64,000 nt of DNA from Nitrospirota bacterium (GCA_963737155.1 CAVTRN010000001.1:1504001-1568000), one strand, 5' to 3'. Counted from the first letter of the stretch, positions 525 to 24,972 are shown. A program made the numbers and translations. Notes: generated by a model from the sequence alone, not told the origin.

Positions 525-600
525 ATGGTTTATAATGGGAACAAAAATATATCTTTGATAAGCGAGGGGGAGAGATAGGAAATATCCCCCCCAATGTTTA

Positions 601-702: not shown

Positions 703-2361
703 GAGTCTCACCCCCTTTCTTGTAATTTATCATCCCTCACATGAGGATATTGAAGCTAGAATTTATATCGTATCCCAGCTTCCAACCAACGCCCTGGATT
801 ATTGTATACATTAAAAAGATACTGATTGCTATCGAATATATTATGGATATCAAAGAGAGCTTCTACAGACTGATCTTTATTTAAATAGAGATTTTTAATA
901 ACATGTAAATCAACAATGAAAGAATCATATTCTCCTTGATTCGATGGACTTGCATTCCAGTAGATATAATGTCCTTGCAATCGAACCTTGAGGGATTGCT
1001 CAACGTCATATTGGAGGCCTATGTCATAGGTCCTCTGCGGGTCATTCGGTATAGCCTGGCCAGTAAGCTGGTCCTTCGCCGTCATAAAAGCCGCGCCCGC
1101 GCTAAGTGAAGTATGGTAGACAGGCAGAGTCTTCATTTCTAATTCCATCCCTTGTATTCGTTCTTGTCCGCTGTTTTCTGCAATAAATGTTGAGTTTGAA
1201 AGCTGGTCCGTTACAAGTGCGTCTTTTATATCATGCCTGAATAGGGAAAGTTTAAGCCAAACATACGGCAAATCCGTCGACTCCATACCCATTTGATAAG
1301 ACCACACCTGCTCCATCTTCAAGTCAGGGTTTGCTACGTGTAATAAACCGTCTCCATACGTTGTCGCAAGGGGGGGAATATTGAAACCGCGGGCGGAAGA
1401 GGCGCGTAACAGGGTGTTGTCCGTGATTTTGTAAGTTATGCCGAGGCTTGGGCTTGTGAAGTTCCCGTTTGTATTTGTTACATCATAACGAATTCCCGGA
1501 GTTATGGACAGTTTATCTATTGATATGGTGTCGTTAATAAAATAAGCATCTCTTTTTATTCCTTGCTCGCCGTCGGCAATCGCATTTGACACTAATTTTC
1601 TGGAATCCAGGTCTGAGCCCAGAACAACGTTATTGTATTGCTGTTTCCAGATTAATTTTGCACTCGTACCGTACCCCGTATCCACGTAGCGGTCCTGTGA
1701 AAGCTCCGAGCCGGTGCTTAACTGATCGTCATTAAAAACGAAATCCTGTCGCGATGACCAAGCAGACAAATCGAATTCGGTATCACTACTGACCATTGAC
1801 TTCATTGACAAAGTTGTAAATAAGGTTTCAATGTCATTATTAACCGCGAGGTCGAAACTAGGGAGTTCGACAACACCACGCGACAGGTTGTTATAGTTCA
1901 TCGTAAATATTAAGCTTGTGTCTTTTGTTAAATCATAATTCAGTTTCGCATAAGCGTTATTCCCATCATAGCTATTATTGGGCCTGAACCCATCGGTTTG
2001 CAATCTGCCAGCGGTCACATAGTATCCAAATTGGTGCTGTTCGCCTAAGGTTTCTATTCTTAGGTCCTGCGTATTTCTCTCGCCATAGGTAGCCGATATT
2101 GTTCCGTTGACGCCGGTCCCGCTGCCCGACTTTGTGATAATATTTATAACACCGCCAAGCGCAGAGCCCCACGCAGAGGAGGCTGGACCCTTAACTATTT
2201 CTATTCTCTCGATGTTCTGAACTGGAAGCATACCGATGTCAACGACATTATCACTCAGATCATTCAGTGGAACACCATCCATGAATACGGCAACATGACT
2301 CTCGTCCGAGTCCTGAATTTGTGCTTCAGCACTACTGCCTGGACCTCCTGTTAAAAACACT

Positions 2362-4656: not shown

Positions 4657-5157
4657 GCTTTTGCTTAAAAATATTCAGATGATTGCGACGACATTTGCAG
4701 AAATTAGAATGATAAAAATACAGCATGGAATTACAGGTAATTGCTGCTAGATGCATTGTAAGCGGATTATCTGCTCAATGATGCTGCAGCTCCAATGTAG
4801 CTCCAATGTTAATTTGTAATTTAACAGAAAGAATTTAACAAGAGGCAACCGGCACCAGTGAAATTGCTACACAGAAGTGCATCATTCCCCCAATCACGCG
4901 TTTAAAATTGAGTAGTGTAGCATAATCTTTCTACAGTGATTTTCGTTCTGATCGAAGTAAAGAGCCTGATATTCTCGAACGCTGGGGACAATTCACTTTC
5001 GTGGCGAACCATATTAAATTCATTTAGCTCAATTTACCTTAAACAGAACCTTTTTGCACGCATTCCGAGCGATCTTTGCGTGATACTGATTTCTTGGCAT
5101 TATGCAATTTAGGTGACGGGATATTCCCAATCTTACAAGCTTCTTTGGTGGAGGTTT

Positions 5158-8100: not shown

Positions 8101-9564
8101 TATGCGTATGATGCTGTTGGAAACAAAACGCAAACGCAATTAATTTCTCCTTCTGGCGATTCAACTGATAGTTATATTTATGATTCCACAAACAGACTTA
8201 GTAAAATTAAAGATGAGGCTAAGACTTTCACTTTTGCATATGATAAGACTGGAAAACGCACGAACCTCACTCTTCCGAACGGAGCGTCTGCAAGTTACAT
8301 ATATGACTTGTCCGGCAATTTAACAAGCTTGATAAATACTTCTTCAACTGGTACTATTATCGCAAGCTCTGCCTATACCTTGGACAAGGTTGGAAACAGG
8401 CTGACCTCGTCCGGAGTGAATGGTGAGAATTCGTACAGCTATGACGCTGTATACGATCTACTATCTGCGCAGCCTGGGGGCAACGCCCAGTATGGTCCTG
8501 AAGAATACACATATGATCTGATGGGCAACCGTCTTACGGGGCCGAAGTCGAATCAAACCTATACCTTTAACCAGGACAACCAGCTTGTCACTGAAAACAA
8601 GCAACAGTTCCAGTACGACAATAACGGGAACCTTATAAGCTATGTAACCAGATCGACCACATCCAGTTATTCTTATGACTTTGAAAACAGGCTGACGCAA
8701 GTGATCACGGCCAGTACCGACACCGTAACGACGACAGCATACGCCTACGACCCCTTTGGCCGAAGGATTCAAAAAAGCGTAACAACAGCAGCAGCAGGCA
8801 ACACAATTGCCACAAGCACATACTACATCTACGACGGACAATCTGTTTTACTTGAAAACACTGACACCGCCTCAGGCGGAGAAGTTACAATCCGTTATAT
8901 CCAAGGTCCCAACATAGACGAGCACCTGGCAATGGTCCGAGTCAATGACAATACTTACAACTACTATCATGCAGACGGTCTAGGCTCGATAGTCGCGATA
9001 ACGGATAAAAATCAGCAAATAGATGAAACATACACCTATTCAGCATTTGGTGTGGTCACGAGTGTGGGTAATGGAATAAATAACCCTTATAGCTTTACTG
9101 GCAGGGAATGGGATTCAGAAGCAAGCCTGTACTATTATCGGTCTAGGTATTATAACCGGAAGATAGGGAGGTTTATCAGCAAAGACCCAATAGGGTTTAT
9201 AGGTGGTTTGAATCTATACCGATACGTGGGAAATAATCCTATTAACTTTAGAGACCCATATGGACTTAATCAAGAACTCTATGGGTGGATTAGTAATTTC
9301 ACTCAGGAGGCTTTTACAAGCACCATCGAAAACCTATTACCTGAGTCTCTTGAAGCGCCCCTTCAAGCGGCAGGCTATGCGTTAGGCGTGCTTGATCCGT
9401 TCCCTCGGGAACTTAATGCGGAAGAAGATGCTATGGTCTTAATAACACAGAGTCAAGAGTTTGGTGCAGCTGTTGATCAGTTGGCTATAGATACTGTGAA
9501 TACAAGTGATCAACTTGAACAATTAATTAATGATGAAAATGAGAGAATAGGTAACTGTCATTAA
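5158..9564 (+). CDS. Rhs1: Rhs/YD-repeat protein with signal peptide, Cys-rich head, DUF6531-like region, Rhs core and acidic C-terminal domain
   Basis: SD GGAGG before ATG ATG 5158/5161; hydrophobic stretch ending SESYA; GxQTCxxxQWGxC repeats; LGRGW; many YxYD repeats; HADGLGS and NPINFRDPYGL core end. Confidence 0.93.
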   Translation: MMDQQSRNHRRLPVLEHCSLVKRLYLMISGLIVAMSLWTMIAMILPSESYAICLQGSGATANQIVFCDTQTEALAAASGYCSNSGSNCCTFAVGETYSNSYCGPFGCGTAGGEVDINNCGVTAYPIIFGNCDEGATQSCTENYLNGVQCNGTQTCLPNAQYGYCALFDPSCLPCSDGQSQNCAYTCPSGIQITGTQACENQLFGSCYADPLICQQAVCNDGQTLPCNTYDIAGNQCYGAQTCSGGQWGYCQPGSTCATCLGSSSQLCIATDILGNQCNGSETCSGSQWGPCLPTGPSCAVCSPNQTQTCSCPIGGGTQTCSSSGQWSACSCIVACQTGDCGNTSNGPQSNTTCINSSANLKSGNLTHNQDVITAPKSLPFSLTYNSNDITVGPLGRGWTDTYNVFISAATNTSGSISSLILTENSGNKIMFSPSSSLYSPSAGSGDTSTIVVNADGTYTRTLKDGTLQTFNTSGILNTISDRNNNTTTLSYSGGNLVTITDSTGRSLSIAAASGQIASITDPSGQTYKFSYNGNLLMAVSDPSGDIWNYTYDANGRMLTKTDPAGFQSIYAYDVNGNLISTTDPNGMVKTMTYNQALNEAQFVEIDGGVWYQFYDPNLNLPTQTMAVDPNDNEYITNYTYDSNGNMLTKTDPDGDVTTYTYDAKSNVTSIINALGQKTIYTYNNFSEVTSMIDPLGNNTTYTYDANGNLLSTTDPLGVVTTYQYDTKGNETRATNALNHTTKLTYDKYNNIASVTDPAGDKSTFTYTINGKMTSLTDANGNTTTLTYNNLNQLIQVVDSEGNTTLYAYDKDGNRTMRADANGNATYFAYNFKRQPTMGKNALGGITSLNYTGTGCEFCGGSRYQLAALIDANGNTTSYSYDILGRLINQTDSLGNGIMYSYDPAGNLTTVNKADGATIHYAYDATGRLLTKSYPDGSTTSFTYDAKGNILTATNNNISYTFTYDADGRVASVADHFNDLVNYAYDAVGNKTQTQLISPSGDSTDSYIYDSTNRLSKIKDEAKTFTFAYDKTGKRTNLTLPNGASASYIYDLSGNLTSLINTSSTGTIIASSAYTLDKVGNRLTSSGVNGENSYSYDAVYDLLSAQPGGNAQYGPEEYTYDLMGNRLTGPKSNQTYTFNQDNQLVTENKQQFQYDNNGNLISYVTRSTTSSYSYDFENRLTQVITASTDTVTTTAYAYDPFGRRIQKSVTTAAAGNTIATSTYYIYDGQSVLLENTDTASGGEVTIRYIQGPNIDEHLAMVRVNDNTYNYYHADGLGSIVAITDKNQQIDETYTYSAFGVVTSVGNGINNPYSFTGREWDSEASLYYYRSRYYNRKIGRFISKDPIGFIGGLNLYRYVGNNPINFRDPYGLNQELYGWISNFTQEAFTSTIENLLPESLEAPLQAAGYALGVLDPFPRELNAEEDAMVLITQSQEFGAAVDQLAIDTVNTSDQLEQLINDENERIGNCH

Positions 9565-10103: not shown

Positions 10104-10664
10104 ATGAAAAACAGTATACTGATCATAATATCGGTAATAGTACCCTTATTTCTGTCCTCACATGTTTATGCAATTTACCAGTGGGTCGATGAAAAAGGCC
10201 AAGTTCATATTAGTGATTATCCGAAGCCGACATATGAGCAAAATAATACGGAGAAAACCTTGAAGGGTGAAAGGTCTCAGTTGACAACGACTGTCAGTAA
10301 TGAAAATGCTATACAACGCATGGATTTAGGATCAACCCAACCCTCAACGGGAATAATCAGCCGGCCTCAATTCGATCAGACAGGTATACAACGATCTCTA
10401 GCTAGTTTGGGCGAGCAAATATTATCATTTGTATTCCTTGGATTCTGTCTGTTCGTTGCTTGGATATTTGCCTTGATCGATATAATCCGTAGTAAATTTT
10501 ATGACAATACTAATAAGATTCTATGGTTTTTCTTTGTCTTTTTGCTTGCACCAATTGGAGTTATACTATATTTTCTCATAGGCAGACAACAAAAAATAGA
10601 AGTAGCGTCAAATAGGGATACCGAAATGCCCCGCAGAAGACCGCGAAATTTAGATTTGGAATAG
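10104..10664 (+). CDS. DUF4124-like N-terminal domain plus PLDc_N-like membrane domain protein
   Basis: Signal peptide, IYQWVDEKGQVHISDYP; C-terminal WIFALIDIIRS...KILWFFFVFLLAPIGVILYFLIGR. Confidence 0.8.
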   Translation: MKNSILIIISVIVPLFLSSHVYAIYQWVDEKGQVHISDYPKPTYEQNNTEKTLKGERSQLTTTVSNENAIQRMDLGSTQPSTGIISRPQFDQTGIQRSLASLGEQILSFVFLGFCLFVAWIFALIDIIRSKFYDNTNKILWFFFVFLLAPIGVILYFLIGRQQKIEVASNRDTEMPRRRPRNLDLE

Positions 10665-12131: not shown

Positions 12132-12470
12132 CTAATATAAAAAACGAATTACTAAGTAGCCGGAAGTCTATCTGTTAATTTATGCATAAGCTGATTTAGA
12201 GTTATTCGTAATAACAGCTTATCGCTAACACAATGAAGAGGACCCTCTCCGACCTGACAATTATGCCATACCAACAGACAATATCTACCTACAATGAGAG
12301 GCCAGAAGGGGAGATCTGCCAATTTAAATGCAATCTTACTTAATGTGATACAGTTCGGACGACAAGGGACGTTAACAGCACTGCTGGCTCTATGTCTTAA
12401 CGAGACTAAGTCTCGATTTTCTATAGTTACATCCGTGATGATAAAGCCCTTATCCCTCGAGGTGTCAAAA

Positions 12471-15065
12471 ATGGCGATTAAGATTAAACCGTATCTTTCA
12501 TTATCCTGTTTTCTTTTTATCTTAATATCACTAATCCCTCTTACCACCCATGCGGCCACACCGTTGTCCTGCGGCCAGGTGGTGTCCACTACGACAATTT
12601 CATCTGGGGAGATTGACAATTACGCCTTTTCGGGGACTGCGGGAGACACGGTGCGGATAGTGGCGGTACCTGTTTCCGGGAACCTCACCTACGGGGCAGT
12701 CGCACTCTATGACCCGTCTGGTAATTTTATAACCTGGTCGAACTCTGGGCCCATTCAGACAGCGCTAACCGTGAGTGGAGTTTACACGCTCGAGGTGTAC
12801 ACAGAATTTTACAACGGGATCGGCACATACCAGGTAAGATGGGACAATCTCAATAGCCCGTGTGAGGGTGAAGTCACCCTGCTATGCGGGCAAACCGCAG
12901 TCGGTACGACATCCTCATATGTGCAGGAAGACTACTACACCTTCACGGCGGCTGGGGGAGACACGGTGCGGGTGGGGGCGGCACCTGTTTCCGGGAGTTC
13001 TTCATTCTATCCAGGCGTGGTGCTTTATGACCCCTCGGGTACGGTGATAGCTACCACGACCGGTGAGCCCATTCAAACAGCGCTAACTACAACCGGAAAT
13101 TATACGCTCAGGGTGTACGGTGACAATTACAACGGGGACGGCACCTACCAGATAAGATGGAACAACCTCAAGAATCCTTGCGGGGGAAACATCCTGCCAT
13201 GCGGGCTGGCTACGTCCGGTACGATAACCTCATATGTGCAGGAAGACTACTACACCTTCACGGCGTCTGCGGGAGACATAGAGCGGATAGTGGCGGCACC
13301 TATTCCCGGGAGTTCTTCATTCTATCCGGGCGTGGTGCTCTATGACCCCTCGGGTGCGGTGTTAGCCGGGTCGACCAACGGGCCCATTCAAACAGCACTA
13401 ACTTCAACCGGAAATTATACGCTCATAGTGTACGCTGACTATTACGAAGGAACCGGAAGCTACAATCTTTCAGAGGAGAAATTAAATAATCCCTGTAATT
13501 CTGTAGCTATGAATTGTGGACAGAGCCTGTCGGGATCGATAGTTAATCCACTCGATGCGTTTTTTTATAGTTTTACAGCCAATGCGGGTGATGCATTAGT
13601 GTTCACAATGATGACGACCTCCGGGAACCTCACTCCCGGACTTCAGCTTTTCGACTCCTCTGGGAATATAATAGCTGAAAATTATAACCTCACAACGGGC
13701 GGGACTGTAACGCTGAATTCTACTGTCTCCCAGGCAGGCACTTATTTCATCGCCGCCTCAGATTATAATTATAATGCGGTTGGCAATTATACGATCAATT
13801 TCCAGAAGAACGGCAATTCCTGCCCCGAGGTGCAAGTGCTGTCTCCTAATGGAGGGGACACTCTATATGCGGGATCTCCCTATCTCATCACATGGACCAC
13901 CTCGGCTAGTGCTGGCCTGGCATCCGAGGGCATTAGTTTATCGGTAGACAGTGGGGCCACGTATTCGACAATTGCTCAGGGTTTGCCAGGCAACACCACT
14001 TCATGGCAGTGGACGCCAAGTAGCACAACCTCAAACGGACGCATCCGGATATCCGTGACCGACAATGCGGGACTCACCGATTTTGACAATAGTGCTGCCG
14101 ATTTTACGATACTTTCCATGGTGACGGCTCCGGCAAGCACGGCCAACGTAACGCTGTCCAATGTCAGCGCGAGCAGCAACTCAATCAACACGATGGCTTC
14201 GCAGTCATCCAGCATATTCTTTACCCTCAATGAGCCAGCCACGGCAACGCTCATGATAATACCTCAAATGCAGGGTCCGACGGGGACCCCGATTTATCAG
14301 ACATCTCAGACCTGCGCTGCGGCCGGGTCGTATGCCTTCACTTGGAATGGGACGGACAACACGGGCAAGGTCGTCCCTGACGAGGCGTACCTTTATGTCA
14401 TAGTGGCATCAGACGGCACAACGTCCACTAGTTATTCCCCGCTTGCCTCGACAGGCACAGGCACGGGAACTTGCTCGCAGTCGTCGAATTGCGATCCTTT
14501 GAGCAATAACCCCTTGACGGTCACCTACTCGGTGGCACTGTCCTCCCGGGTGACCATCAGTATCACCTGGGGGGCGCAGAACTTCACAATTCTGAATGCC
14601 TACCCAGTATTGCCGGGGACCTATAGCTATGTTTGGGATGTCAGGAACCCGAGCGGCGAACCACTCGATTTCGGCGCACTAGCCTACTGCTCAGCGTCTC
14701 TTCTCCCTGGGAACATTATAATAACGTCCGGAGACACGCCCGTGGTAAGTGCGCTCAAAACCGATCCTTTTGCGATGAATATGTCCTATGGCCAGTTTAC
14801 GAGGATAGAGTACACGCTCTCGCGAGACTCGAATGTCACCATACAGCTTGTCTCGCCGTCCGGAGTGGCCATGACTCTCGTCAATAACCAGCTTCAAACG
14901 GCGGGTCATCAAGAGTTCGACTGGCATGGTATGGATCCGACGGATACGACTGGAAAGGAAGCTTTGGTATCCGAGGAGGGTAATTATATGGTCACGATTC
15001 AGGCCGTGAACCCGATTACCGGGACAAGTTCTACCACAAGAGGAAATTTGGCGATCGGAGATTGA
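12471..15065 (+). CDS. Secreted multi-beta-sandwich protein (PPC-like repeats, Ig-like domain, FlgD-Ig-like domains)
   Basis: Likely start ATG 12471 after GAGGTG; signal peptide ending THA; four DxYxFTxxAGD...LYDPSG-type repeats; VLSPNGGD...ITW; three FTWNG/YVWD/FDWHG FlgD-Ig-like modules. Confidence 0.8.
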   Translation: MAIKIKPYLSLSCFLFILISLIPLTTHAATPLSCGQVVSTTTISSGEIDNYAFSGTAGDTVRIVAVPVSGNLTYGAVALYDPSGNFITWSNSGPIQTALTVSGVYTLEVYTEFYNGIGTYQVRWDNLNSPCEGEVTLLCGQTAVGTTSSYVQEDYYTFTAAGGDTVRVGAAPVSGSSSFYPGVVLYDPSGTVIATTTGEPIQTALTTTGNYTLRVYGDNYNGDGTYQIRWNNLKNPCGGNILPCGLATSGTITSYVQEDYYTFTASAGDIERIVAAPIPGSSSFYPGVVLYDPSGAVLAGSTNGPIQTALTSTGNYTLIVYADYYEGTGSYNLSEEKLNNPCNSVAMNCGQSLSGSIVNPLDAFFYSFTANAGDALVFTMMTTSGNLTPGLQLFDSSGNIIAENYNLTTGGTVTLNSTVSQAGTYFIAASDYNYNAVGNYTINFQKNGNSCPEVQVLSPNGGDTLYAGSPYLITWTTSASAGLASEGISLSVDSGATYSTIAQGLPGNTTSWQWTPSSTTSNGRIRISVTDNAGLTDFDNSAADFTILSMVTAPASTANVTLSNVSASSNSINTMASQSSSIFFTLNEPATATLMIIPQMQGPTGTPIYQTSQTCAAAGSYAFTWNGTDNTGKVVPDEAYLYVIVASDGTTSTSYSPLASTGTGTGTCSQSSNCDPLSNNPLTVTYSVALSSRVTISITWGAQNFTILNAYPVLPGTYSYVWDVRNPSGEPLDFGALAYCSASLLPGNIIITSGDTPVVSALKTDPFAMNMSYGQFTRIEYTLSRDSNVTIQLVSPSGVAMTLVNNQLQTAGHQEFDWHGMDPTDTTGKEALVSEEGNYMVTIQAVNPITGTSSTTRGNLAIGD

Positions 15066-15179: not shown

Positions 15180-15330
15180 AAGGATGGCAAATAAATTCAG
15201 GCGCTATCTTTTTACCCTTTTGCGTATTTTAGGAGATTTGCAAGAGACTCCCAGGCTTAAAGTCAATACATGCCTTGTAGACTTTGAGGCAGTGTTTTGG
15301 AAAGCGCACGAGCGGAGGTTCATATGATGC
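15180..15330 (+). repeat. Duplicated 5' leader of the Cys-rich genes (second copy ~16436..16590)
   Basis: CAGGCGCTA(T/G)CTTTTTACCCTTT...TTTTAGGAGATTTG...CTCCCAGG.TTAAAGTC...GCGGAGGTTCA present before paralogues 1 and 3. Confidence 0.85.
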
Positions 15331-15791
15331 ACAGGATAAAGGATATGCTTTGTTTGTTCATGACTGAATTTCCCCACAAAAAAAATGTACCTTTTATGCT
15401 CTTGATGTTGCTCTACATGTATAGTCCGCTTAAATTAGCATACGCAAATTGCAATTATATGTTTGTAAGCGAAGACTTATGTTTAATTGATGTGGGTTGC
15501 ACTACCAAAAAGGAAGCTAAGGACGTAGCGATACATTTCGGCAAGCCTCCTATTCCTAGTACAATTTATCCTAATTGTTTTAACCATCTTAATACGCCCC
15601 TACCTTGCGGAACGTATACAATTTGTTGGAGTTGCCCCGGGTACTCTTGGTGCCCTACCCCTGACGTACCAGTTGTACGGCAGTGCAGCGCTGGAGATCT
15701 CTGTTGTCTAAAACCCGATGACCCCTGCTGCAAAAAAGCGGGCGGTACAGGGAGCAGCAGCAATGTACCTAACGCTGTCGTCGGTAATTAA
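15324..15791 (+). CDS. Secreted Cys-rich protein, paralogue 1 of 3
   Basis: SD GGAGG; leader MMHRIK...LAYA; tail CSAGDLCCLKPDDPCC...NAVVGN. Confidence 0.85.
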   Translation: MMHRIKDMLCLFMTEFPHKKNVPFMLLMLLYMYSPLKLAYANCNYMFVSEDLCLIDVGCTTKKEAKDVAIHFGKPPIPSTIYPNCFNHLNTPLPCGTYTICWSCPGYSWCPTPDVPVVRQCSAGDLCCLKPDDPCCKKAGGTGSSSNVPNAVVGN

Positions 15792-15845
15792 TAAGGAGAG
15801 TGAATATGGCAAAAGGGCGATTGAGGTTGCAAGTATAGGGTTCGC

Positions 15846-16337
15846 ATGATGCACAGGATAAAAAATATGCTTAGCTTATTCATGACTGAATTTCTCCACA
15901 AAAAAAACGTCCTTTACCTGCTCTTGATGTCGCTTTGCATGTTTACTCCGCTTAAATCAGCTTATGCAGTTTGCGATGGTGGAAGTGAATGCACATGGCA
16001 ACTTTGCACAACCGAAGCGGAAGCTCGAGATTGGCTTACTGGTTGTCCTCCCCTAGCCCCAATACCTTGGCTCCCGGGATCGAATTGCTACTGGATAACT
16101 TGTGGTTCGAATCCGTCAATGCCGCATCCCTGCCTGCTTATGGATGGGGTGAATGTTCAAGGTTCGATTTGTTGGACTTGCCCCGGGGCCGGCTGGTGCC
16201 CTCCCCCTGCAGTAAAAGTCGTGCCGCAGTGCAGCGCTGGTGATTACTGTTGTCTAAAGCCCGATGACCCCTGCTGCCAAGTTGCGGGCAGTACAGGGAG
16301 TGGCAGCAATGTAACTAACGCTGTCAGCGGTCATTAA
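15846..16337 (+). CDS. Secreted Cys-rich protein, paralogue 2 of 3
   Basis: Same leader (…KSAYA) and tail, different core. Confidence 0.85.
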   Translation: MMHRIKNMLSLFMTEFLHKKNVLYLLLMSLCMFTPLKSAYAVCDGGSECTWQLCTTEAEARDWLTGCPPLAPIPWLPGSNCYWITCGSNPSMPHPCLLMDGVNVQGSICWTCPGAGWCPPPAVKVVPQCSAGDYCCLKPDDPCCQVAGSTGSGSNVTNAVSGH

Positions 16338-16585
16338 TGACCAGAGTGAATATGGCAACGGGGCGATTGATGTTGCAAGTCTCGAAACGATAGTCTTTAA
16401 ATTTTCTCTGCGTAAATTGATCATGCGAATTCTATAAGGTGATAAATAAATACAGGCGCTAGCTTTTTACCCTTTTTGAGTATTTTAGGAGATTTGAAGG
16501 ATACTCCCAGGTTTAAAGTCAGTCAATACACGCCTTGTGGACTAGAGATAGTGTTTCTGAAAGTGTACAAGCGGAGGTTCACACG

Positions 16586-17056
16586 ATGCACAGGATAAAA
16601 GACATGCTTAGTTTGTTCATGTCTGAAATTCTCCAGAAAAAAAATGTCCTTTTGCTGATCTTGCTGATGGTTTACATGTATTATCTGCTTAAATCCGCCT
16701 ATGCAGATTGCGCTGGTACGTATGGATTTCAATCATGCGAAACCGAGGCAGAAGGTCTTAATTGGAATTCAGTTTATGCTTGTGGTAATGGCGGCTTATA
16801 CCATATCCCATGGCTCCCGGAGTCGAATTGTTATTGGATGACTTGTACCCCGCTGACACCCATAGGCGATGCCGGATGCCTACCTTTCAGTGGGGTGTTT
16901 GTTTGTGGCACGATATGTTGGAATTACAACGGCCCTCTCAATATGAAGTGCAGCTCTGGAGATCCCTGTTGTCTAAAGCCCGATGACCCCTGCTGCCAAG
17001 TTGCGGGCAGTACAGGGAGCGGCAGCAATGTACCTAACGCTGTCATCGGTCATTAA
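16586..17056 (+). CDS. Secreted Cys-rich protein, paralogue 3 of 3
   Basis: SD GGAGG; same leader and tail, different core. Confidence 0.85.
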   Translation: MHRIKDMLSLFMSEILQKKNVLLLILLMVYMYYLLKSAYADCAGTYGFQSCETEAEGLNWNSVYACGNGGLYHIPWLPESNCYWMTCTPLTPIGDAGCLPFSGVFVCGTICWNYNGPLNMKCSSGDPCCLKPDDPCCQVAGSTGSGSNVPNAVIGH

Positions 17057-17197
17057 TGACGAGAGTGAATATTGCAACAGGGCGATTGATGTTGCAAGTC
17101 TCGAAGCGATAGCCTTTAAATACTTTCTGCGTAAATAACCATGCGAATATTATCCAGATATCGGGGTATTAATCTTTTAAGTTGCCAGGAGGTACTA

Positions 17198-20100
17198 ATG
17201 TGCCGATCAATGTATATGTTGTTGCTCCTCATGCTTGTAATCCCGCTTTCATCTCCCGCATACGCAGAGCATCTGGCTCCTGCCGATCAGTTTTGCGCAC
17301 CGGTGACCGGGAGCGGCAGCGATAGCAAACTCTTTTATGGCGGCAAACCCGTAAGTCTGCTCTCGGGCGTTGAGTATTTTAGGCGGACCGACCTTACCAT
17401 CGGCAGCCTTTTCCCCATCACCGTCACACGCCAGTACGACAGCAGTTCCGCCTACGATAGTCCGCTCGGCTACGGGTGGGCGCTGGACTATGACAAACGC
17501 CTTTATACCTACCCGGACGGCTCCATCGTACTACGCAAGGACTGCGGCGGGAAATCTCGCTTTACCTGGAACGTGTCGGGATACAGCAGCTCTGCGGGAG
17601 ACCCGAGCACCCTCGTTCAAAATGCTGACGGCACCTATACTTACACCGACAAATATGGACAAAGCGAAAATTATGATGCTCAGGGGCGGCTTACGAGTAA
17701 GGTGGATACGAAGGGCAATTCGCTCGTGTTTACCTATGAAAGCAGCATATTGAGCTCGCTCTGGGGGCTGTCGCCCTGGAACATCAATCAGTCAACCCCC
17801 CTTATTGTTGCATATGATTACCAATTGGTCAAAATCGAAGAGGATGCTGCCACAGGCTCACCCACCGGTGTTTCTGTTACGTTCTCCTATGACACCTCAA
17901 CGAACAGGCTCATTGGCGTCATGGACAGCGCTGGCCGGTCAATCACCTACAGCCACGACAACATAGGAAATCTGATCGGGGTAAGTAACCCCTCGGGGAA
18001 TATATCCTATGGGTATAACGATTCAACCAACAATCACCTCCTTACGGACATTGACGAGGGCCAGGGTGCGTACACCAATACATATGACACTTATGGCAGG
18101 GTCATCTGGCAGACCCACGGCACGGGTGCAATAGAATTTGCGTATACCATCCCGTCTTCAGCGACTACGATCACCACTTACATTGCAGACAACTCAGGTA
18201 ATCTCCTGAACGCCCAGGGCCGGACAGTAAATTTCGACAGTAATGGAGCCCTGATCATGGCTACTGATACCTTCGGGAATGTCACAACCTACACGCGTGA
18301 CGCTAACTCGTGGATCACGCAGGAGGGATACTGGGAGAATACCGGCACGGTGTCAACACCGAATCTCGTGCTCACGACGGCAATGAGTTACACTTACGAC
18401 ACTAAAGGCAACATGCTCAGCAAAACCGAGGCATTGGGGACAGCACAACAAAAGACCACCACCTACACCTATCATCCCACATTCAGCTTCGTGACGTCCG
18501 AAACGGTAACAAGTGTGGTTGATCCGAGCCAAAACAAGGTCATCACGAAAAATTATGACAATACAAACGGGAATCTTTTGTCAGTCGCGGAAACCGGTCT
18601 CTTAGGAAACGGGACCCCGTATTCCTATACCACGACCTACGGGTATGACGGCTTGGGCCACGTGACCAGCATCAGCGGCCCACGGACCGATGTTGATGAG
18701 GTGACAACATATACTTACGATCCCGTAACTTATTATCGTACATCCATGACCCAGCCGATAGTCGGGACGACCACCTATTCTAACTTTGACCCCCTCGGCA
18801 ATCCCCAGACCGTCACTGACCCGAATGGGAACAGCACGACCTACACCTACGATGCCACGGGCAGGGTGCTGACCGTAAAAGCTCCTGGTGATTCGAACCC
18901 GACGCAGTTATTTTATGTCTCCGGCGGTTGTTCCTCATGCGGCGGGGGGACGGCACTCAATATTGATCATATAACGCTACCCTCAGGCAATACGATCTGG
19001 TATACTTATGACGCCATGGGAAACCTTGCCACGATCAAGGACAGCCTGAACAACAGCATCAACTATACCTATGACTCCGCAGGGAACAAGCTAACAGAAC
19101 AGATCAACGATGCATCCGGAGCCCTCCAGAAGAGTTTAAGTTATCAGTATGATGCGCTTAACCGGCTTTACCAGACCGTCAATCCCGACACCACGTACAC
19201 GCAGTATGGCTACGATAATCTCAACAACCGCACATCGGCCCAGAACCCGAAATTGGCAATTACGAATTATACATACGATGCCCTGAGCAGACTCACTTCG
19301 GTGGTTCAGCCCGGCACGATCACAACTGCTTACGGCTATAATGCGAACAACAACCTCACGTCTGTTACGGACGCCAACAGCAATACGACGACGTACAAGT
19401 ACGACGATAAAGGAAGGGTCTATCAAGTCATATCGCCCGATACGGGAACGACAACATACTCGTATGATCCGGCAGGAAACCTTATCGCCAAGACGGATGC
19501 GAAAGGAGTCACCATCTCCTATACCTATGATGCTCTGAACCGCCTTACCAATATCAACTTCCCGAGTGACCCAAACATCGTGTATACGTATGATACGTGC
19601 CCGAACGGCAAGGGCAGACTGTGCTCCATGACCGATGCCAGCGGTTCGACAAATTATGTCTACACGCCGAAAGGGCAGGTCAGCACACAAACAAACGTCA
19701 TCAACAGCATACAGTACGTTACCCAGTACACTTACGATCAGGACGGAAACGTTGCTACAATGACCTATCCGTCGGGCCGCGTGATTACGTACGACTACAC
19801 GAACGATCGAGCTGTAAGCGTCCTGAACAACTCTGCGAATCTTGCCACAAACATCACTTACAAACCCTTTGGCGGTATGAGCGCGATAACCTATGGAAAT
19901 GGCCTGACCGGTTCGGTTTCTTACGACAACCAATATCGCATCACGGCTATCACCGATGGCGCTGTCATGAATCTGAGTTACCCAAATTATGACGCGGACG
20001 GCAATATCAATGCCATCACCAACGTGCTCGACGCCACAAAGAACAAGTCTTACGGCTACGATGCATTAGACCGGCTGAACAGCGCGACGGGCTCCTGGGG

Positions 20101-21109
20101 CAGCGTTAGCTGGACTTATGATGGCGCCGGCAATCGGCTCACGGAAGGATCAAATAGCTATACTTACGCTCCGAACACCAATAAATTAACGGGCGCCAAC
20201 GGAATATCCTATGGATATGATAACGACGGAAACACTACCTCGCAGGGCGCGATTCAGTACATCTACAATCAGAATCAGAGGCTCATTCAGGCAAATAATG
20301 GCGGAACGACAGCGTATTACACCTATAACGGAAACGGCCAGCGAGTCATGAAGGACGTAAATGGAACCACGACGATATTCATTTACAGCCTGACCGGCCA
20401 GATCATTGCCGAATCGAACAGCGCTGGAAATATCACTGTGGAATATGTATACTTGAACAGGCAACCGCTGGCGCAGATCGTAAACGGCAATACGTACTAT
20501 TACCACCCCGATCATCTCGGCACCCCGCACAAGATGACGGACGCAACCGGCACCGTCGTTTGGTCTGCATACTATAAACCCTTCGGTGCAGCGAGCGTCA
20601 CTGTATCTACGATCACGAACAATCTGCGATTACCGGGGCAGTACTTCGATGCGGAGACGGGGCTGAATTATAACTACTATAGAGACTATAGTTCAGTCAT
20701 CGGAAGATATCTCGAGTCAGACCCTTTGATGTTGCCATTTCTTCATAACCGTAGCGTCCGTTTTGTCCTCCCATATTTAACAACAACTCCAGGCCATCTT
20801 CACGATTATCTCTACGTGGAAAATAATCCCATACATTGGGTTGACTCAAAAGGATTATTACAGAGTTCAGGATCAGGGCCATCCGGTTATCCTGGTAATG
20901 AGGGAGCGGCGTGTAATCTTAACAATGCTTCTAGTCTCATCTATGGCCACTTTAATATGGGTGCCGAATATGCGTATACTCCCGTACAATGTTGTGAAGA
21001 AGAAAACTGCAATCCAACTTGCCCGTCAGATAAGGGTCCGTGGCTAACTAAACCAAATTCCGATAAATGTGTATGCGTTAAATGGAAGACTATCATGAAG
21101 GAATATTGA
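17198..21109 (+). CDS. Rhs2: Rhs/YD-repeat protein with signal peptide, DUF6531-like N-terminus and Cys-rich C-terminal domain
   Basis: SD AGGAGG before ATG 17198; signal peptide ending PAYA; GKPVSLLSG...PLGYGW; YD repeats; HPDHLGTP, NLRLPGQYFDAETGL, NPIHWVDSKGL. Confidence 0.95.
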   Translation: MCRSMYMLLLLMLVIPLSSPAYAEHLAPADQFCAPVTGSGSDSKLFYGGKPVSLLSGVEYFRRTDLTIGSLFPITVTRQYDSSSAYDSPLGYGWALDYDKRLYTYPDGSIVLRKDCGGKSRFTWNVSGYSSSAGDPSTLVQNADGTYTYTDKYGQSENYDAQGRLTSKVDTKGNSLVFTYESSILSSLWGLSPWNINQSTPLIVAYDYQLVKIEEDAATGSPTGVSVTFSYDTSTNRLIGVMDSAGRSITYSHDNIGNLIGVSNPSGNISYGYNDSTNNHLLTDIDEGQGAYTNTYDTYGRVIWQTHGTGAIEFAYTIPSSATTITTYIADNSGNLLNAQGRTVNFDSNGALIMATDTFGNVTTYTRDANSWITQEGYWENTGTVSTPNLVLTTAMSYTYDTKGNMLSKTEALGTAQQKTTTYTYHPTFSFVTSETVTSVVDPSQNKVITKNYDNTNGNLLSVAETGLLGNGTPYSYTTTYGYDGLGHVTSISGPRTDVDEVTTYTYDPVTYYRTSMTQPIVGTTTYSNFDPLGNPQTVTDPNGNSTTYTYDATGRVLTVKAPGDSNPTQLFYVSGGCSSCGGGTALNIDHITLPSGNTIWYTYDAMGNLATIKDSLNNSINYTYDSAGNKLTEQINDASGALQKSLSYQYDALNRLYQTVNPDTTYTQYGYDNLNNRTSAQNPKLAITNYTYDALSRLTSVVQPGTITTAYGYNANNNLTSVTDANSNTTTYKYDDKGRVYQVISPDTGTTTYSYDPAGNLIAKTDAKGVTISYTYDALNRLTNINFPSDPNIVYTYDTCPNGKGRLCSMTDASGSTNYVYTPKGQVSTQTNVINSIQYVTQYTYDQDGNVATMTYPSGRVITYDYTNDRAVSVLNNSANLATNITYKPFGGMSAITYGNGLTGSVSYDNQYRITAITDGAVMNLSYPNYDADGNINAITNVLDATKNKSYGYDALDRLNSATGSWGSVSWTYDGAGNRLTEGSNSYTYAPNTNKLTGANGISYGYDNDGNTTSQGAIQYIYNQNQRLIQANNGGTTAYYTYNGNGQRVMKDVNGTTTIFIYSLTGQIIAESNSAGNITVEYVYLNRQPLAQIVNGNTYYYHPDHLGTPHKMTDATGTVVWSAYYKPFGAASVTVSTITNNLRLPGQYFDAETGLNYNYYRDYSSVIGRYLESDPLMLPFLHNRSVRFVLPYLTTTPGHLHDYLYVENNPIHWVDSKGLLQSSGSGPSGYPGNEGAACNLNNASSLIYGHFNMGAEYAYTPVQCCEEENCNPTCPSDKGPWLTKPNSDKCVCVKWKTIMKEY

Positions 21110-21121
21110 TAAAGGGATGAT

Positions 21122-21586
21122 ATGACTACTTTTATTCGTAAAAGCAAATTGCTATCTTTGTTTTATGCGTCTTCTATGGTGTTGCTCTTCCATTATTGTT
21201 ATGGCTTAATAAAACATTCAGTTTGGAGTAAAGCTCTCGGTTTTGTAAGCATGGATATTTCGACCCCAAAATGGTTGATATTTGCCTTGGTACTATTTAC
21301 AAATTTTATAGCGGATATAACCTCATCACTAATAGCTGCGATAATTCCAGGTTTTCTTCTTTTTTATGTTCTGAAAAAGAGCGCCACCTATTATAGCCTT
21401 CCAGCAGTTTTGGTTTTTATAGCCTTAAGTCCTCGGCTGCGGAAATTATGGAGTGCGCCGAAGCTAGAAACAAAAATTAGCCTATTAATAGGGCCATTCT
21501 TGGCAGCTTTCGTGTATCTATCTGTCGTTTGGCTTTTTCAAAAGTATCTCATCAAACGCATGGGAAACAACATCAACCAAGCGTAA
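21122..21586 (+). CDS. Four-TM membrane protein, putative Rhs2 immunity/partner
   Basis: Starts 12 nt after the rhs2 stop; AT-rich; hydrophobic. Confidence 0.7.
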   Translation: MTTFIRKSKLLSLFYASSMVLLFHYCYGLIKHSVWSKALGFVSMDISTPKWLIFALVLFTNFIADITSSLIAAIIPGFLLFYVLKKSATYYSLPAVLVFIALSPRLRKLWSAPKLETKISLLIGPFLAAFVYLSVVWLFQKYLIKRMGNNINQA

Positions 21587-21588
21587 CC

Positions 21589-21880
21589 TATCACCCCGCC
21601 GCTACGTTCTTCTGTACCAGCGCATCGAGATAATGCAGGAGAACCATCTGGTCTCCTTTCGGAAGGCCATCTCATTTTTAACTGCCGCCTCGATGACCAC
21701 GTGTTTCGGACGTTGCTTGACTTACTCGGCAATCAATGATTTAATTAGCCCTCAAGTGCACCTATGATCCTTGGAAAAACTGTCGAAAAACGAGTTGCGT
21801 CATAAGATTTATTGCTCTCGGAAGGCCGTATGGATAAAGGGTTTTCCCCTGATGAGCCGAAGCCGCTGGACGGGATGATC
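21589..21880. repeat. ~300-bp inter-cassette spacer, copy 1
   Basis: Homologous to 22778..22869+24253..24447 and 25797..26093; ends exactly at the HxDHLGT codons. Confidence 0.85.
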
Positions 21881-22456
21881 CACACCGATCATCTCGGCAC
21901 TCCGCAGATAATGACGAATAGTTCCGGGGCAGTTGTGTGGTCTGCATACTATAAAGCGTTCGGTGCAGCGACCGTCACCGTATCGACGATCACGAATAAT
22001 CTGCGATTCCCTGGGCAGTACTACGATGCAGAGACAGGCTTGAACTATAATTACTTCAGGGACTATAATCCAGTGATCGGGAATTACATAGAACCTGATC
22101 GTGTCAATTTAAAATCTTTACAGCTTCCCCTGCCGCTTTTTAAAGCGAAAATTCACTTTCCAAATATAAATGAAACTAATTTGAAAAAAATACTAACCAA
22201 CTATTCTCTCTATCATCCACAAACACAGAATCCATATCCCTATGTAGACGATAATCCAAACAACCGGACAGATCCTGATGGTGAATTTTGGCCGGAAATT
22301 ATAATCGGGATTATCATAAGTGGACTAATCGCAGAAATGATATATAGTGGATTACATCCAGAAGAAGAACCCCCACAACATATCGATCCAGAACAGCCTG
22401 ATCTTAATCAACCAACCCCTACGCGGCGGCCTTTAGAACCATGTGAAAGGGAATAA
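21881..22456 (+). CDS. Orphan Rhs core-CT cassette 1
   Basis: HTDHLGTP...NLRFPGQY...NPNNRTDPDG, then a TM and Pro-rich tail; no YD repeats; possible in-frame ATG at 21830 or 21875. Confidence 0.85.
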   Translation, partial: HTDHLGTPQIMTNSSGAVVWSAYYKAFGAATVTVSTITNNLRFPGQYYDAETGLNYNYFRDYNPVIGNYIEPDRVNLKSLQLPLPLFKAKIHFPNINETNLKKILTNYSLYHPQTQNPYPYVDDNPNNRTDPDGEFWPEIIIGIIISGLIAEMIYSGLHPEEEPPQHIDPEQPDLNQPTPTRRPLEPCERE

Positions 22457-22457
22457 A

Positions 22458-22766
22458 ATGTTGACTTCTTTATGGGATATATTCGGAAGGCATTCGAAAA
22501 TATTTGTGGTATTTGCAGGGTTAGTTGTTATTTTGTGCTCAGTGTTTTTTTATATTAATAAACGAGAGAAAGCTTACAACAAATATTACTTGGCAGGATA
22601 CCTTGTTGTTTTTTTCGGGATATGCGTTTCACTGATTAGAATATTATTATCAGTGCGATCTTGGGGCTTGATGATCTTATCGTTAATTCTTTATCTAATT
22701 GGCTTCATAGTAGTTCTATACGGTGGGAAGAAACGAAAGGAAGCTGACAGTCTTCAAAAAAAGTAG
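22458..22766 (+). CDS. Three-TM protein, putative immunity of orphan 1
   Basis: ATG 1 nt after the orphan stop; hydrophobic. Confidence 0.7.
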   Translation: MLTSLWDIFGRHSKIFVVFAGLVVILCSVFFYINKREKAYNKYYLAGYLVVFFGICVSLIRILLSVRSWGLMILSLILYLIGFIVVLYGGKKRKEADSLQKK

Positions 22767-22869: not shown

Positions 22870-24244
22870 GGCTCATGGCACCCTTCTGTGGGTAAAAGAC
22901 CACGGATGGAATCGATTCATCCAGGGAGTGCAGGCCTGAATGATCTTCAAATCTAGATAGGCATTGTCTCGATAACCGTATGCGCGGCGAATTACATTTC
23001 TTGCTTTAGCGTTTGCGGCCTCAATAAATCCAAGCGGCGCTTTATTATCGCAATACGCCAAAATACCATCCAGATGCTTTTCCACCATACGTGCGAATTT
23101 TTGCATCGGCTTCAGTCGACTCCATTTAAGTTGGTCTACCCAACCTCGAAAGAACTTGCGTGCCCATGTTATTGATTCATAGCTCCACAAGTGCCCAAAC
23201 GTCTCTTTCATCAAATGCGCCTTAAACAATCGCTTATTTGCTCGCAATGCGTCATTCAGCTCTACCCGCGCATTTCCTCGTACATGGGCTTGACGGGAAA
23301 GCAGAATAAATTTTTTCCCCGACAGTCGGCCTTTCATCCATTTCCCGGCCTTTCGGATCTCCTGTACTCGCACAGCATTAAGAGCTTTTAGTAAGTGTTG
23401 GATAACGTGAAACTTATCGTAAATAATCTGCGCACTCGGACAGTGCTTACGGACACTGTTGCGGAACGGCTTCCACATGTCCATTACTGCATGGGTGATT
23501 ATATGAGCACGCTCTTTGCCAAACCACTTCCAGAACTTGCTCAAGTTGCGTTCTTTTCGCCCTTTCCCCACAAACAGCATCTCGGGACCACGAGGTCCAT
23601 CCAGAGCGCTTATCATGTGCTTATACTTATGTCCCTTGCCCTTTCCATGGGAAAGTTCATCCATGCCCAATACGTTTATGCCGTCCAGAGGGCGGTTTGC
23701 CTGCTCTTCCTGTAACGCCTGTTTATCAATCGCCTTGACCGTATGTCGGTGCAGCATCAGGATATCGCCCACGGCCTTGACCGTTGTCACTTTGCACAAT
23801 TCCTTGGTTACATGCGCCAATTCTGCGGTGACCCGCGGTCCTCGGACATCTACAAAATCAAGAGGTTCCGATAAAATCCCGCACGCTTTACAGTTGCCGC
23901 GGTAGCGCTCGAATCGGATAAATGTTGGGGTACTCCAAAACAGTAAATGGCGGACCTCAAATTCCTTGCTGTCGTATCCACCGATGTCTATCACACCACA
24001 CTTCGCGCATGTATGAGTTTCATGATCCCGAGCTATCGTAACAATGACGGATATACGTTCCTTTCGGTATCCTATATCAAACTCCGTCACATGATGCCCT
24101 TGAATTCCTAATAAGCGTGTGAGATAATCTAAATGCATCCGGAAGGCCCCTCCTTGCTTAATGATTGCGAGTCATTTGCAAGAAGTTAACGCTTTCCGGG
24201 TGTCTTTTCAACGCATTTCAGCCCATAGTATCGTGCCAAGAGCC
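22870..24244 (-). mobile_element. ISL3-family element (1375 bp) inserted in spacer copy 2
   Basis: IRs GGCTCATGGCAC / GGCTCTTGGCAC; 8-bp TSD TATTATTT (22862-22869, 24245-24252). Confidence 0.93.
22873..24138 (-). CDS. ISL3-family transposase
   Basis: CxxC...CxxC zinc finger, GMDE, MDMW, YDKFH, EAAN...RRAYGYR. Confidence 0.93.
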   Translation of the reverse strand: MHLDYLTRLLGIQGHHVTEFDIGYRKERISVIVTIARDHETHTCAKCGVIDIGGYDSKEFEVRHLLFWSTPTFIRFERYRGNCKACGILSEPLDFVDVRGPRVTAELAHVTKELCKVTTVKAVGDILMLHRHTVKAIDKQALQEEQANRPLDGINVLGMDELSHGKGKGHKYKHMISALDGPRGPEMLFVGKGRKERNLSKFWKWFGKERAHIITHAVMDMWKPFRNSVRKHCPSAQIIYDKFHVIQHLLKALNAVRVQEIRKAGKWMKGRLSGKKFILLSRQAHVRGNARVELNDALRANKRLFKAHLMKETFGHLWSYESITWARKFFRGWVDQLKWSRLKPMQKFARMVEKHLDGILAYCDNKAPLGFIEAANAKARNVIRRAYGYRDNAYLDLKIIQACTPWMNRFHPWSFTHRRVP

Positions 24245-24447
24245 TATTATTTTAACCACCGTTACAAAGCCGAGTGCAGATGCTGCTTGACTTGTGTTGT
24301 GATCAATGGCTTAATATCAATTGCACTTATGCTTTTACAATAAAGTGTCGAAAAACGTATGGTGTCGTAAGTGTATGTTGTGCTGATAACTCCGCATGGA
24401 TACAGGTCCTTTCTCTTATCGTCTGTGATTGCTTGGACGGGCTGATC

Positions 24448-24972
24448 CACCCCGATCATCTCGGTACGCCGCAAATGATAACGAACAGTTCCGGAGCAGT
24501 TGTGTGGTTTGCCTACTATAAAGCGTTCGGTGCAGCAACCTTAACCGTATCAACGATCACGAACAACCTGAGATTCCCAGGGCAGTACTTCGATGCTGAG
24601 ACGGGGCTACATCAGAACTGGAATCGTGATTACAATTTTTCAAATGGTCGATACCTTGAAGCGGATCCTTTTTTGCTTCCACTTTTTTATCAAGGCAAAA
24701 TATTATTCGTCCCACCATATATCACAAAAAATCCAAACCTCATACCCGTTTATCTTTATGGGGTAAATAATCCTACGAAATATATCGATTCAAATGGTTA
24801 TAAAGCAGCACAATGTAATCCATGTCCTTATGGAAATCAGCCATGGGTTGCATGCATCATGCTGTGTGATACAGCGTGTGCTGCAGCTTTTATTGTTGAG
24901 GCCCCCCCTATAGCGGTTATTTGTATTATCACATGCCATGCAGCTTGCGAGGGCCAAAAGTGCGAGAAATAA
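24448..24972 (+). CDS. Orphan Rhs core-CT cassette 2 with Cys-rich hydrophobic C-terminal domain
   Basis: HPDHLGTP...NPTKYIDSNG then CNPC...CIMLCDTAC...CIITCHAAC...C; Rhs homology starts at 24448; start codon unclear. Confidence 0.85.
   Translation, partial: HPDHLGTPQMITNSSGAVVWFAYYKAFGAATLTVSTITNNLRFPGQYFDAETGLHQNWNRDYNFSNGRYLEADPFLLPLFYQGKILFVPPYITKNPNLIPVYLYGVNNPTKYIDSNGYKAAQCNPCPYGNQPWVACIMLCDTACAAAFIVEAPPIAVICIITCHAACEGQKCEK

Follow-up and report, generated by a model that had tools for sequence, protein, structure and literature searches.

Tandem genes for secreted cysteine-rich heads precede a headless Rhs toxin gene in a Nitrospirota genome

A window of 64,000 nucleotides (nt) from the genome of a Nitrospirota bacterium (GCA_963737155.1, CAVTRN010000001.1:1504001-1568000) was analysed; all positions given here are counted from its first letter. 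Directly upstream of the Rhs toxin gene Rhs2, three tandem genes were found that encode secreted, cysteine (Cys)-rich proteins, here called heads A, B and C; Rhs2 itself carries a signal peptide and no head. Free heads of this kind are homologous to heads fused to the N-terminus of other Rhs proteins. It is rather likely, judging from sequence comparison, that the heads are Sec-exported, disulfide-rich proteins that form the separately encoded counterpart of the fused Rhs head and join Rhs2 after export.

Results

Three free head genes and a headless Rhs

Each of the three head genes had a start codon and a signal peptide of its own, and all three frames were intact. A GGAGG-like site was located 5 nt 5' of the likely ATG of heads A and C. 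Alignment revealed a common leader of 40-41 residues with an extended N-region M(M)HRIKDML.LFM.E...KKNV, a hydrophobic core and the end AYA, the invariant positions being M-H-R-I-K..K-K-N-V..L-K-x-A-Y-A; in head A, signal cleavage was predicted after AYA (residue 41). A common tail of 35 residues, C-S-x-G-D-x-C-C-L-K-P-D-D-P-C-C..A-G-x-T-G-S-x-S-N-V-x-N-A-V-x-G-[HN], was followed by the stop codon. Between leader and tail, the cores were divergent and hardly alignable. Three tandem paralogues of this build had been proposed by a preceding sequence-only reading, and both the alignment and the segment identities given below bear this out. The motifs named there (CTTKKEA, CTTEAEA and CETEAEG, later NC) were present as well, and Rhs1, the second Rhs protein of the window, reads SYA followed by IC...CDTQTEA...GSNC.

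In Pfam and NCBIfam, heads A, B and C had no family match, and a search of the ESM Atlas gave no usable match. The bacterium's own genome (4.84 Mb, 2 contigs, 100% complete) contains these three head genes only. An assignment of the heads to lipoproteins was rejected on the basis of the Cys position, mostly +2 after A-Y-A, and the missing lipobox. Independent bacteriocins were judged unlikely, as the spacers between the head genes (54 and 197 nt) contain no immunity-like gene.

The annotated first ATG of Rhs2 (17141) falls within the repeated 3' flank of the heads, and the true start is probably the in-frame ATG at 17198, with AGGAGG at 17187. The signal peptide of Rhs2 ends with PAYA at residue 42. 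About 25 residues lead from there to the plug strand GGKPVSLLSGVE, with no domain between; the protein thus has its own signal peptide and is headless, as had been read from the sequence before. This N-peptide contains Cys52 (D-x-F-C), and the plug contains Cys135 (R-K-D-C-G-G-K). With its shell repeats, plug, RHS core and cleavage motif before a variable C-terminal toxin end, Rhs2 is an Rhs/YD-repeat polymorphic toxin: the DUF6531 plug (PF20148) covers residues 68-140 (E 4.9e-15), the YD shell matched RHS repeats (PF05593) in 9 stretches (E 1.3e-69), and the RHS core (PF03527) covers residues 1119-1152 (E 2.7e-14). The cleavage motif VDSKGL, a variant of DPxGL, reads NNPIHWVDSKGL. The plug strand can be aligned to the solved Rhs proteins 8h8a and 7q97. 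Rhs1 and Rhs2 were the only DUF6531-bearing Rhs genes in the own genome.

Homology of free and fused heads

The clearest evidence that the free heads are homologues of the fused ones came from relatives. In genome G015, two orthologues of Rhs2 carry an in-frame head, in the order signal peptide, Cys-rich region, CC-rich tail, Gly-rich linker and plug strand. A free head of genome G054 matched such a fused N-terminus of G015 by BLASTP with E 7e-17 and 36% identity over 137 residues, the alignment spanning the signal peptide through the CC tail; the free head of a Geobacter-labelled locus matched the same fused N-terminus with E 2e-14. Loci L077 and L071 also had fused heads with the C-x-T-E-x-E motif, and additional fusions were seen in L092 and L095. 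A distance of about 10 residues separates the last CC of a fused head from the plug strand GDPVILVSA, and by our reading the free-head ending GSNVPNAVIGH lines up with this strand. Rhs genes of G015 at L005/L017 (contig G015:C5) and L025 (G015:C8) were broken by frameshifts or stops and may be pseudogenes or assembly errors; counts from G015 are therefore less reliable.

Within the own genome, the fused counterpart is Rhs1. Its mature head (residues 67-372, 41 Cys) lies between a signal peptide ending SYA and DUF6531. Over its first approximately 120 mature residues it is collinear with a free head, and about four more Cys modules follow; the module of approximately 35 residues, C..G.TQ.C....C.G.QTC..G.WG.C, occurs in about five repeats. 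A hidden Markov model (HMM) was built exclusively from four heads of relatives (P0012 and three of genome G003) and searched against all six-frame open reading frames (ORFs) of at least 60 residues of the own genome. Four matches were obtained at E <= 1, namely the three heads and Rhs1. The match to Rhs1 (E 3.5e-6) was collinear from profile positions 21-150 and Rhs1 residues 48-186, and the piece in common comprised the end of the signal peptide, the C-x-T-x-x-E-A motif and the 35-residue Cys module. The likeness of heads to Rhs N-terminal heads, as claimed in the sequence-only reading, therefore stood for the proteins of relatives and for the HMM match; it did not stand for the direct comparison of the window's heads with Rhs1, which is given in the Discussion.

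Gene order in related loci

Orthologues of the N-terminal 330 residues of Rhs2 were found in 18 of 63 other genomes of the family and in 9 of 19 genera, the own genus included. They were 48-59% identical to the Rhs2 of the window, and best matches reached 53-60%. The upstream DNA was read for every Rhs2-type locus that could be fetched. Twenty-one genome loci had a visible upstream region: 19 were split, with head gene(s), 2 were fused, and none lacked a head. The signal-peptide Rhs of a split genome locus was directly preceded by 1-4 secreted Cys-rich ORFs, 123-461 residues long. Among 41 metagenome loci, 5 duplicated genome loci and 3 gave no readable Rhs ORF; they added 28 split loci (with heads cut by a contig end in two and an insertion sequence (IS) between head and Rhs in one), 2 fused loci (L092 and L095) with 1 further probable one (L088), and 1 locus without a head (L109). 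The totals were about 47 split loci, 4-5 fused loci and 1 without a head gene. Heads thus lie immediately upstream of a headless signal-peptide Rhs in nearly every locus examined, an adjacency that the sequence-only reading had noted for the window. The genomes were mostly labelled Nitrospirota or Nitrospiria, and two were labelled Geobacter/Geobacteraceae.

Arrays with more than one head were found in the window (3), in G003 (3 and 2), in G054 (4), in L098 (2) and in L100 (5). The five tandem heads of L100 (approximately 2260-4846), the largest array, all differ from each other, precede one Rhs2-type gene and have odd Cys numbers. In L102, the IS that separates head and Rhs contains an integrase-type ORF. 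L109 was the only Rhs2-type locus read without an upstream head and, judged by reading the sequence, contains a purC-like gene in this place.

When two parts form one protein in certain genomes and separate proteins in others, they are usually taken to work together, which is known as the 'Rosetta stone' argument. The conserved order of these loci was a large Ig-like protein, 1-5 head genes and a signal-peptide Rhs. Homologues of the Ig-like protein of the window were found upstream in most head/Rhs loci read (L014, L048-L057, L092, L096, L115). Their C-terminal part of approximately 330 residues (FlgD_ig/CHU_C-like) was conserved across loci, and their N-terminal part was variable, with PPC, with Beta_helix/NosD, or with fn3 plus Flg_new_2 (InlB-type repeats). 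Since the Ig-like protein also precedes fused-head Rhs genes without a free head (L064, L092), its presence is independent of free heads; the system may include it as a third component. Two proposals for it were rejected. With 12 Cys in its mature part and 2-4 Cys in the C-terminal part of relatives, it is even and was discarded as holder of an unpaired partner Cys, and the resemblance of its C-terminal strand GNLxIG to the head end NAVxG was inconsistent across loci.

Cysteine counts

An even number of Cys is the norm in secreted proteins rich in disulfides. Mature heads had 7-41 Cys, and the number was odd in 55 of 66 (20/23, 12/14 and 23/29 in three head sets that may share proteins; binomial 2e-8), signal peptides having been cut automatically by a home-made rule. 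Five of the eleven even heads have a Cys between two candidate cleavage sites, and curated cleavage at the A-x-A site turns them odd. Mature split-type Rhs proteins from complete ORFs were odd in 18 of 20 cases, compared with 3 of 8 other Rhs proteins of the same genomes (Fisher p 0.009). The odd Cys of the Rhs proteins is located in the toxin end: toxin ends after the DPxGL-type motif were odd in all 16 cases with a clean boundary; these toxins are unrelated and contain 1-15 Cys. In the window, odd numbers were counted in the toxin ends of Rhs2 (7) and Rhs1 (1) and of the orphan C-terminal cassettes 1 (1) and 2 (9). The Cys of the N-peptide and that of the plug covaried in split Rhs proteins (35 distinct N-termini, with one fused and one 5'-open row excluded; Fisher p 1e-6): both were present in 27 and absent in 7, the plug Cys occurred alone in 1, and the N-peptide Cys alone in 0.

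The Cys of one head and one Rhs add up to an even number, and a single disulfide therefore probably joins the two. The counts suggest a bond from the head either to the Rhs or to its toxin, and two wirings would fit. In one, the head Cys would be bonded to the toxin Cys and the N-peptide Cys paired with the plug Cys, which would explain why the latter two are lost together. In the other, the head Cys would be bonded to the N-peptide Cys and the plug Cys to the toxin Cys, by analogy to two solved structures. According to the available parts of these reports, a disulfide connects a toxin-domain Cys with a plug Cys in the cryo-EM structure of a bacterial teneurin-like protein (PMC13018210), and the plug of human Teneurin4 is disulfide-bonded to the C-terminal linker (PMC9058538). 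The available part of the latter report also describes one free Cys each in teneurin EGF repeats 2 and 5, used in covalent dimerisation (PMC9058538).

Mosaic DNA and repeats

DNA identity among the three head genes differed between segments. It was 80-84% in the leader, 43-64% in the core (with 48-66 gap columns), 86-93% in the tail and 82-94% in the 49 nt 3' of the stop codon. Synonymous divergence (dS) was 0.33-0.64 in the leader versus 0.07-0.17 in the tail. Because these values differ, the head genes are mosaics whose parts have separate histories, and such mosaics fit an exchange of cores between conserved flanks. The interchangeability of the array that the sequence-only reading had assumed is supported to this extent, together with the arrays of 2, 3, 4 and 5 heads in other loci.

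A 'U' element of approximately 95 nt was found upstream of heads A and C and not of head B. Its direct repeats D3, D6 and D8 were 86-94% identical between the two copies, and the upstream regions of A and C were 84% identical. The element may be a promoter or a 5' untranslated unit that was duplicated together with a head. The final part of the conserved 3' flank of head B (approximately 100 nt) copies the context of the annotated Rhs2 ATG. The repeat D4 in the Rhs2 N-peptide DNA matched the stretch for T-G-S-G-S-N in each head tail (15747, 16293 and 17012) in 16 of 18 bases. The 'U' element (16476-16489) and the plug-strand DNA of Rhs2 (17370-17383, encoding V-E-Y-F-R) have an identical string of 14 nt in common, TTGAGTATTTTAGG, which may be due to chance or may be a relic of an older Rhs 5' end.

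Rarity and definition of the head family

The head proteins are too diverse for a family profile, which recognises a small part of them only. A search with head B against 5.8 billion clustered proteins returned the three heads of the window and one other protein, P0009 (36% identity). A six-sequence profile matched 17 of 1.84 billion representatives at E <= 1e-3, all with 99-202 residues; fused (long) forms were absent from these 17, and the same kind of profile also misses Rhs1. Likewise, a 23-sequence profile found no longer form among 7,998 scored candidates of 355-2000 residues, a weak negative, as this kind of profile misses Rhs1 too. Among 401 genomes of the phylum, the family profile had matches in 3 (own, G003 and G015), and a profile scan of genome contigs with alignment A1 found no relatives.

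A leader/tail subfamily was defined from alignments A1-A4 by a leader M-x-R-I-K-D..K-K-x-V, an h-region ending with A-Y-A, a Cys at mature position 1-2, the motif C-[TS]-T-x-x-E-A, a DPCC-type tail and a Gly/Ser-rich end. All of these traits are present in the heads of the window. The heads also belong to a wider class defined by position, i.e. odd-Cys secreted ORFs directly upstream of a signal-peptide Rhs2-type gene. Nine further proteins (seven free heads of relatives, P0012 and the N-terminal segment of Rhs1) were scanned for the MopE-like motif PF11617 (CDxxDNDCDGxxDE-type). It was detected in two of them (E about 4e-6), the free heads L052 4871-5860 (329 residues) and L056 4960-5775 (271 residues), and was absent from the three heads of the window in a Pfam scan. 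Some heads may thus bind metal besides forming disulfides.

Further features of the window

The coordinates of all features are compiled in Table 1. No Ig-like partner gene was seen upstream of Rhs1, where the ORFs were judged by reading the sequence.

Table 1. Coordinates of the head genes, the Rhs genes and their surroundings
Feature	Position	Strand	Remarks
ORF with CxxxCxxC motif like radical-SAM enzymes	3..614	-	Upstream of Rhs1; named by reading sequence
TonB-dependent-receptor-like fragment	756..2360	-	Upstream of Rhs1; named by reading sequence
Transposase-like ORF	2453..3721	+	Upstream of Rhs1; named by reading sequence
Rhs1, Rhs with fused Cys-rich head	5113..9564	+	DUF6531 at residues 374-425; C-terminal toxin end with 1 Cys
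Membrane protein, DUF4124 and PLDc_N	10104..10664		Downstream of Rhs1; could be an immunity protein
Large secreted Ig-like protein	12294..15065	+	923 residues; Pfam PPC, FlgD_ig, P_proprotein
'U' element, copy 1	15189..15283	+	Non-coding, before head A; direct repeats D3, D6, D8
ORF of head A	15297..15791	+	Likely ATG start 15324
Head A, secreted Cys-rich protein	15324..15791	+	155 residues; 13 Cys in mature part
Head B, secreted Cys-rich protein	15846..16337	+	163 residues; 15 Cys in mature part
Conserved 3' flank of head B	16338..16435	+	Repeat D9
'U' element, copy 2	16444..16543	+	Before head C; direct repeats D3, D6, D8
ORF of head C	16535..17056	+	Likely ATG start 16586
Head C, secreted Cys-rich protein	16586..17056	+	156 residues; 13 Cys in mature part
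Rhs2, Rhs toxin with own signal peptide, headless	17141..21109	+	Likely start 17198
18-nt stretch in Rhs2 N-peptide DNA	17306..17323	+	Repeat D4; encodes T-G-S-G-S-D
Rhs2 C-terminal toxin domain	20864..21109	+	From residue 1242; 81 residues, 7 Cys; no known family
Membrane protein directly 3' of Rhs2	21122..21586	+	No family found; putative immunity protein by position
Orphan Rhs C-terminal cassette 1	21812..22456	+	RHS core fragment and toxin end with 1 Cys
Small membrane ORF	22443..22766		After orphan cassette 1
ISL3-family transposase	22873..24138	-	Between the two orphan cassettes; E 6.6e-58
Orphan Rhs C-terminal cassette 2	24274..24972	+	RHS core fragment and toxin end with 9 Cys; beyond ISL3 transposase

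Discussion

The homology of free and fused heads, taken together with a stable split state in which the Rhs has its own signal peptide, is best explained by a functional partnership. From these patterns we infer a physical association of head and Rhs2, a disulfide link between them and a targeting role of the head. Rhs2 would leave the cytoplasm on its own signal peptide and would be joined by a head outside the cytoplasm. The likeliest link would be one intermolecular disulfide, as the counts leave one Cys unpaired in a head, in a split Rhs protein and in a toxin end alike. The joined head would supply the outward-facing part that fused forms hold in cis; judged from its position in fused proteins and its hypervariability, it could serve in adhesion, target recognition or surface anchoring. 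Several head-toxin combinations would be possible with the three heads, the resident toxin end and the two orphan cassettes of the locus, and the array would evolve through exchange of cores between conserved leader and tail. A more specific proposal, put forward tentatively and with the odds against it, is a two-gene 'AB-type' Rhs toxin. Here, the head would be disulfide-bonded to the toxin end, either directly or via an N-fragment carrying the plug Cys, and the head-S-S-toxin conjugate would leave the shell; the targeting chain would be taken from the head array and the toxic chain from the C-terminal cassettes.

Several observations weigh against this partnership and the proposed disulfide. 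In pairwise comparison, head B and the N-terminus of Rhs1 gave E 0.75 by BLAST, the heads of the window had no significant similarity to Rhs2, and a search of the own genome with the whole-family profile did not pick up Rhs1. Head B alone folds poorly: its AlphaFold2 model from a 23-sequence alignment had a predicted local distance difference test score of 57.5 and a predicted template modelling score of 0.29. The Cys parity depends on predicted signal-peptide cuts, with 11 of 66 heads and 2 of 20 split Rhs proteins being even, and the p-values for parity and covariation are overstated, since related genomes are not independent. Heads are also odd in lineages without the N-peptide Cys and the plug Cys, which leaves the partner Cys undefined, and the fused Rhs of L067, with an odd total of 31 Cys, fits neither disulfide model. 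The low dS of the tail indicates that its conservation within the genome reflects recent gene conversion or duplication and is no proof of selection for docking.

Alternative explanations were weighed on the same evidence. Displaced 5' cassettes that serve as donors for new fused heads and have no function as free proteins would account for a conserved leader, tail and 3' flank around unalignable cores, and for the differing segment dS values. The 18-nt tail stretch (16/18 bases) in the Rhs2 N-peptide DNA lies where a fusion junction would fall, the flank after head B ends as a copy of the Rhs2 start context, and orthologues include both fused and split forms. Nevertheless, a mere recombination reservoir is quite unlikely. 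Homology with Rhs2 amounts to merely 18 nt, most split loci have a single head, which is impossible as a reservoir, and each head has retained its start codon, signal peptide and open frame. The Rhs partner has evolved a separate signal peptide as well as a Cys in the N-peptide whose presence covaries with that of the plug Cys, which indicates that the split state is old and stable across at least nine genera, and the odd parity kept over counts of 7-41 argues for selection on the free protein.

Independent secreted proteins would share an operon with Rhs2 without binding it, either as small disulfide-rich or metal-binding exoproteins or as partners of the Ig-like protein. Against this stand the fused orthologues, which show that a head and an Rhs body can function within a single chain, and the parity of the heads, which equals that of the split Rhs proteins, the Ig-like protein being even; the latter moreover occurs upstream of fused-head Rhs genes without a free head (L064, L092). 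As the contact between head and Rhs is deduced from sequence, the heads adjoin the upstream Ig-like protein just as constantly, two long heads of relatives have a MopE-like metal-binding motif and the head family has no known domain, independence is given a small but real chance. Least probable, and close to dismissal, is a periplasmic helper or protector, i.e. a chaperone, an export aid or an inhibitor that keeps Rhs2 harmless or foldable in the producer. Type VI secretion system (T6SS) Rhs effectors have upstream Eag-type chaperones, and the head genes are likewise located upstream of the toxin, with products exported to the same compartment. However, hypervariable cores are not expected in a chaperone of a conserved Rhs N-terminus (48-59% identity), arrays of 3-5 different heads would be left unexplained, the fused domain to which the heads are homologous faces outward, and candidate immunity genes are already present downstream. 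A partnership of head and Rhs2 is therefore preferred as the explanation.

Comparison with known systems

The locus of the window and about 50 related ones reveal a second variable Rhs end, encoded by hypervariable genes in arrays of up to five. A variable adhesin-like protein is also part of the conserved gene order. Coupling of the head to the Rhs or to its toxin, if it occurs, would account for target finding by Sec-exported Rhs toxins in bacteria that lack a T6SS, would provide a natural example of domain splitting in place of N-terminal autoproteolysis, and would extend the plug-to-toxin disulfide of bacterial teneurin-like proteins. If the 'AB-type' proposal were true, both ends of one weapon would be diversified combinatorially. 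The Cys-parity rule offers a simple prediction that can be checked from sequence alone in other secreted YD-shell toxins. In a full-text search of the literature, based mainly on abstracts, no description of separately encoded Cys-rich heads for signal-peptide Rhs toxins was found.

T6SS Rhs effectors have separately encoded PAAR, VgrG or Eag partners, and their N-terminal delivery module is fused or encoded by a neighbouring gene. The loci described here share this alternation between a fused module and a neighbouring gene. In contrast to PAAR-type modules delivered by a T6SS, the heads are Cys-rich and hypervariable and have neither a PAAR nor any other Pfam domain, both partners have Sec signal peptides, and the T6SS sheath gene VipB (PF05943) had no match in the 100%-complete genome. 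Tc (ABC) toxins consist of a YD-shell cocoon with an enclosed toxin and a separately encoded large target-binding component. A toxin-enclosing cocoon that works with a separately encoded large component is the common feature; unlike in Tc toxins, the Ig-like protein has no TcA-type Pfam domain, no TcB-like propeller was seen, and the heads have no Tc counterpart.

The current picture of Rhs and related polymorphic toxins is that of a constant delivery scaffold whose C-terminal payload can be exchanged, and enterobacterial loci with orphan cassettes are known. The classical Rhs loci, as described in the available part of Zhang et al. (2012, PMC3482391), share with the present locus the YD repeats, the DUF6531 plug, the RHS core, the variable C-terminal end, a downstream small membrane gene and orphan cassettes. 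Here, in contrast, the N-terminal end varies too, in separate tandem genes that look expressed. In the available text of PMC3482391, cassettes are mentioned for C-terminal toxin domains only, and the term 'N-terminal cassette' occurs 0 times.

Bacterial teneurin-like proteins (BiTLP, PMC13018210) are, in the part of the report available, signal-peptide YD-shell toxins with variable N-terminal adhesion domains before the plug, and thus resemble the present system in having a variable part in this position. According to the same part of that report, the N-terminal part of BiTLP belongs to one chain and is cut by autoproteolysis, whereas it is a separate gene product here. By Pfam, Rhs2 is not teneurin-like (TEN_YD-shell 14.7 bits versus a cut-off of 50, with no NHL or TTR match). 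Metazoan teneurins, as far as described in the accessible text of PMC9058538, likewise have Cys-rich modules before the plug, with unpaired Cys for an intermolecular disulfide, and a plug Cys bonded to the C-terminal region. They differ as eukaryotic membrane receptors with the Cys-rich modules in one chain, and a likeness at sequence level is not claimed. The heads hint that such Rhs toxins can combine different front ends, and not only different payloads. New relative to known Rhs systems is the second variable end, which is encoded as separate genes.

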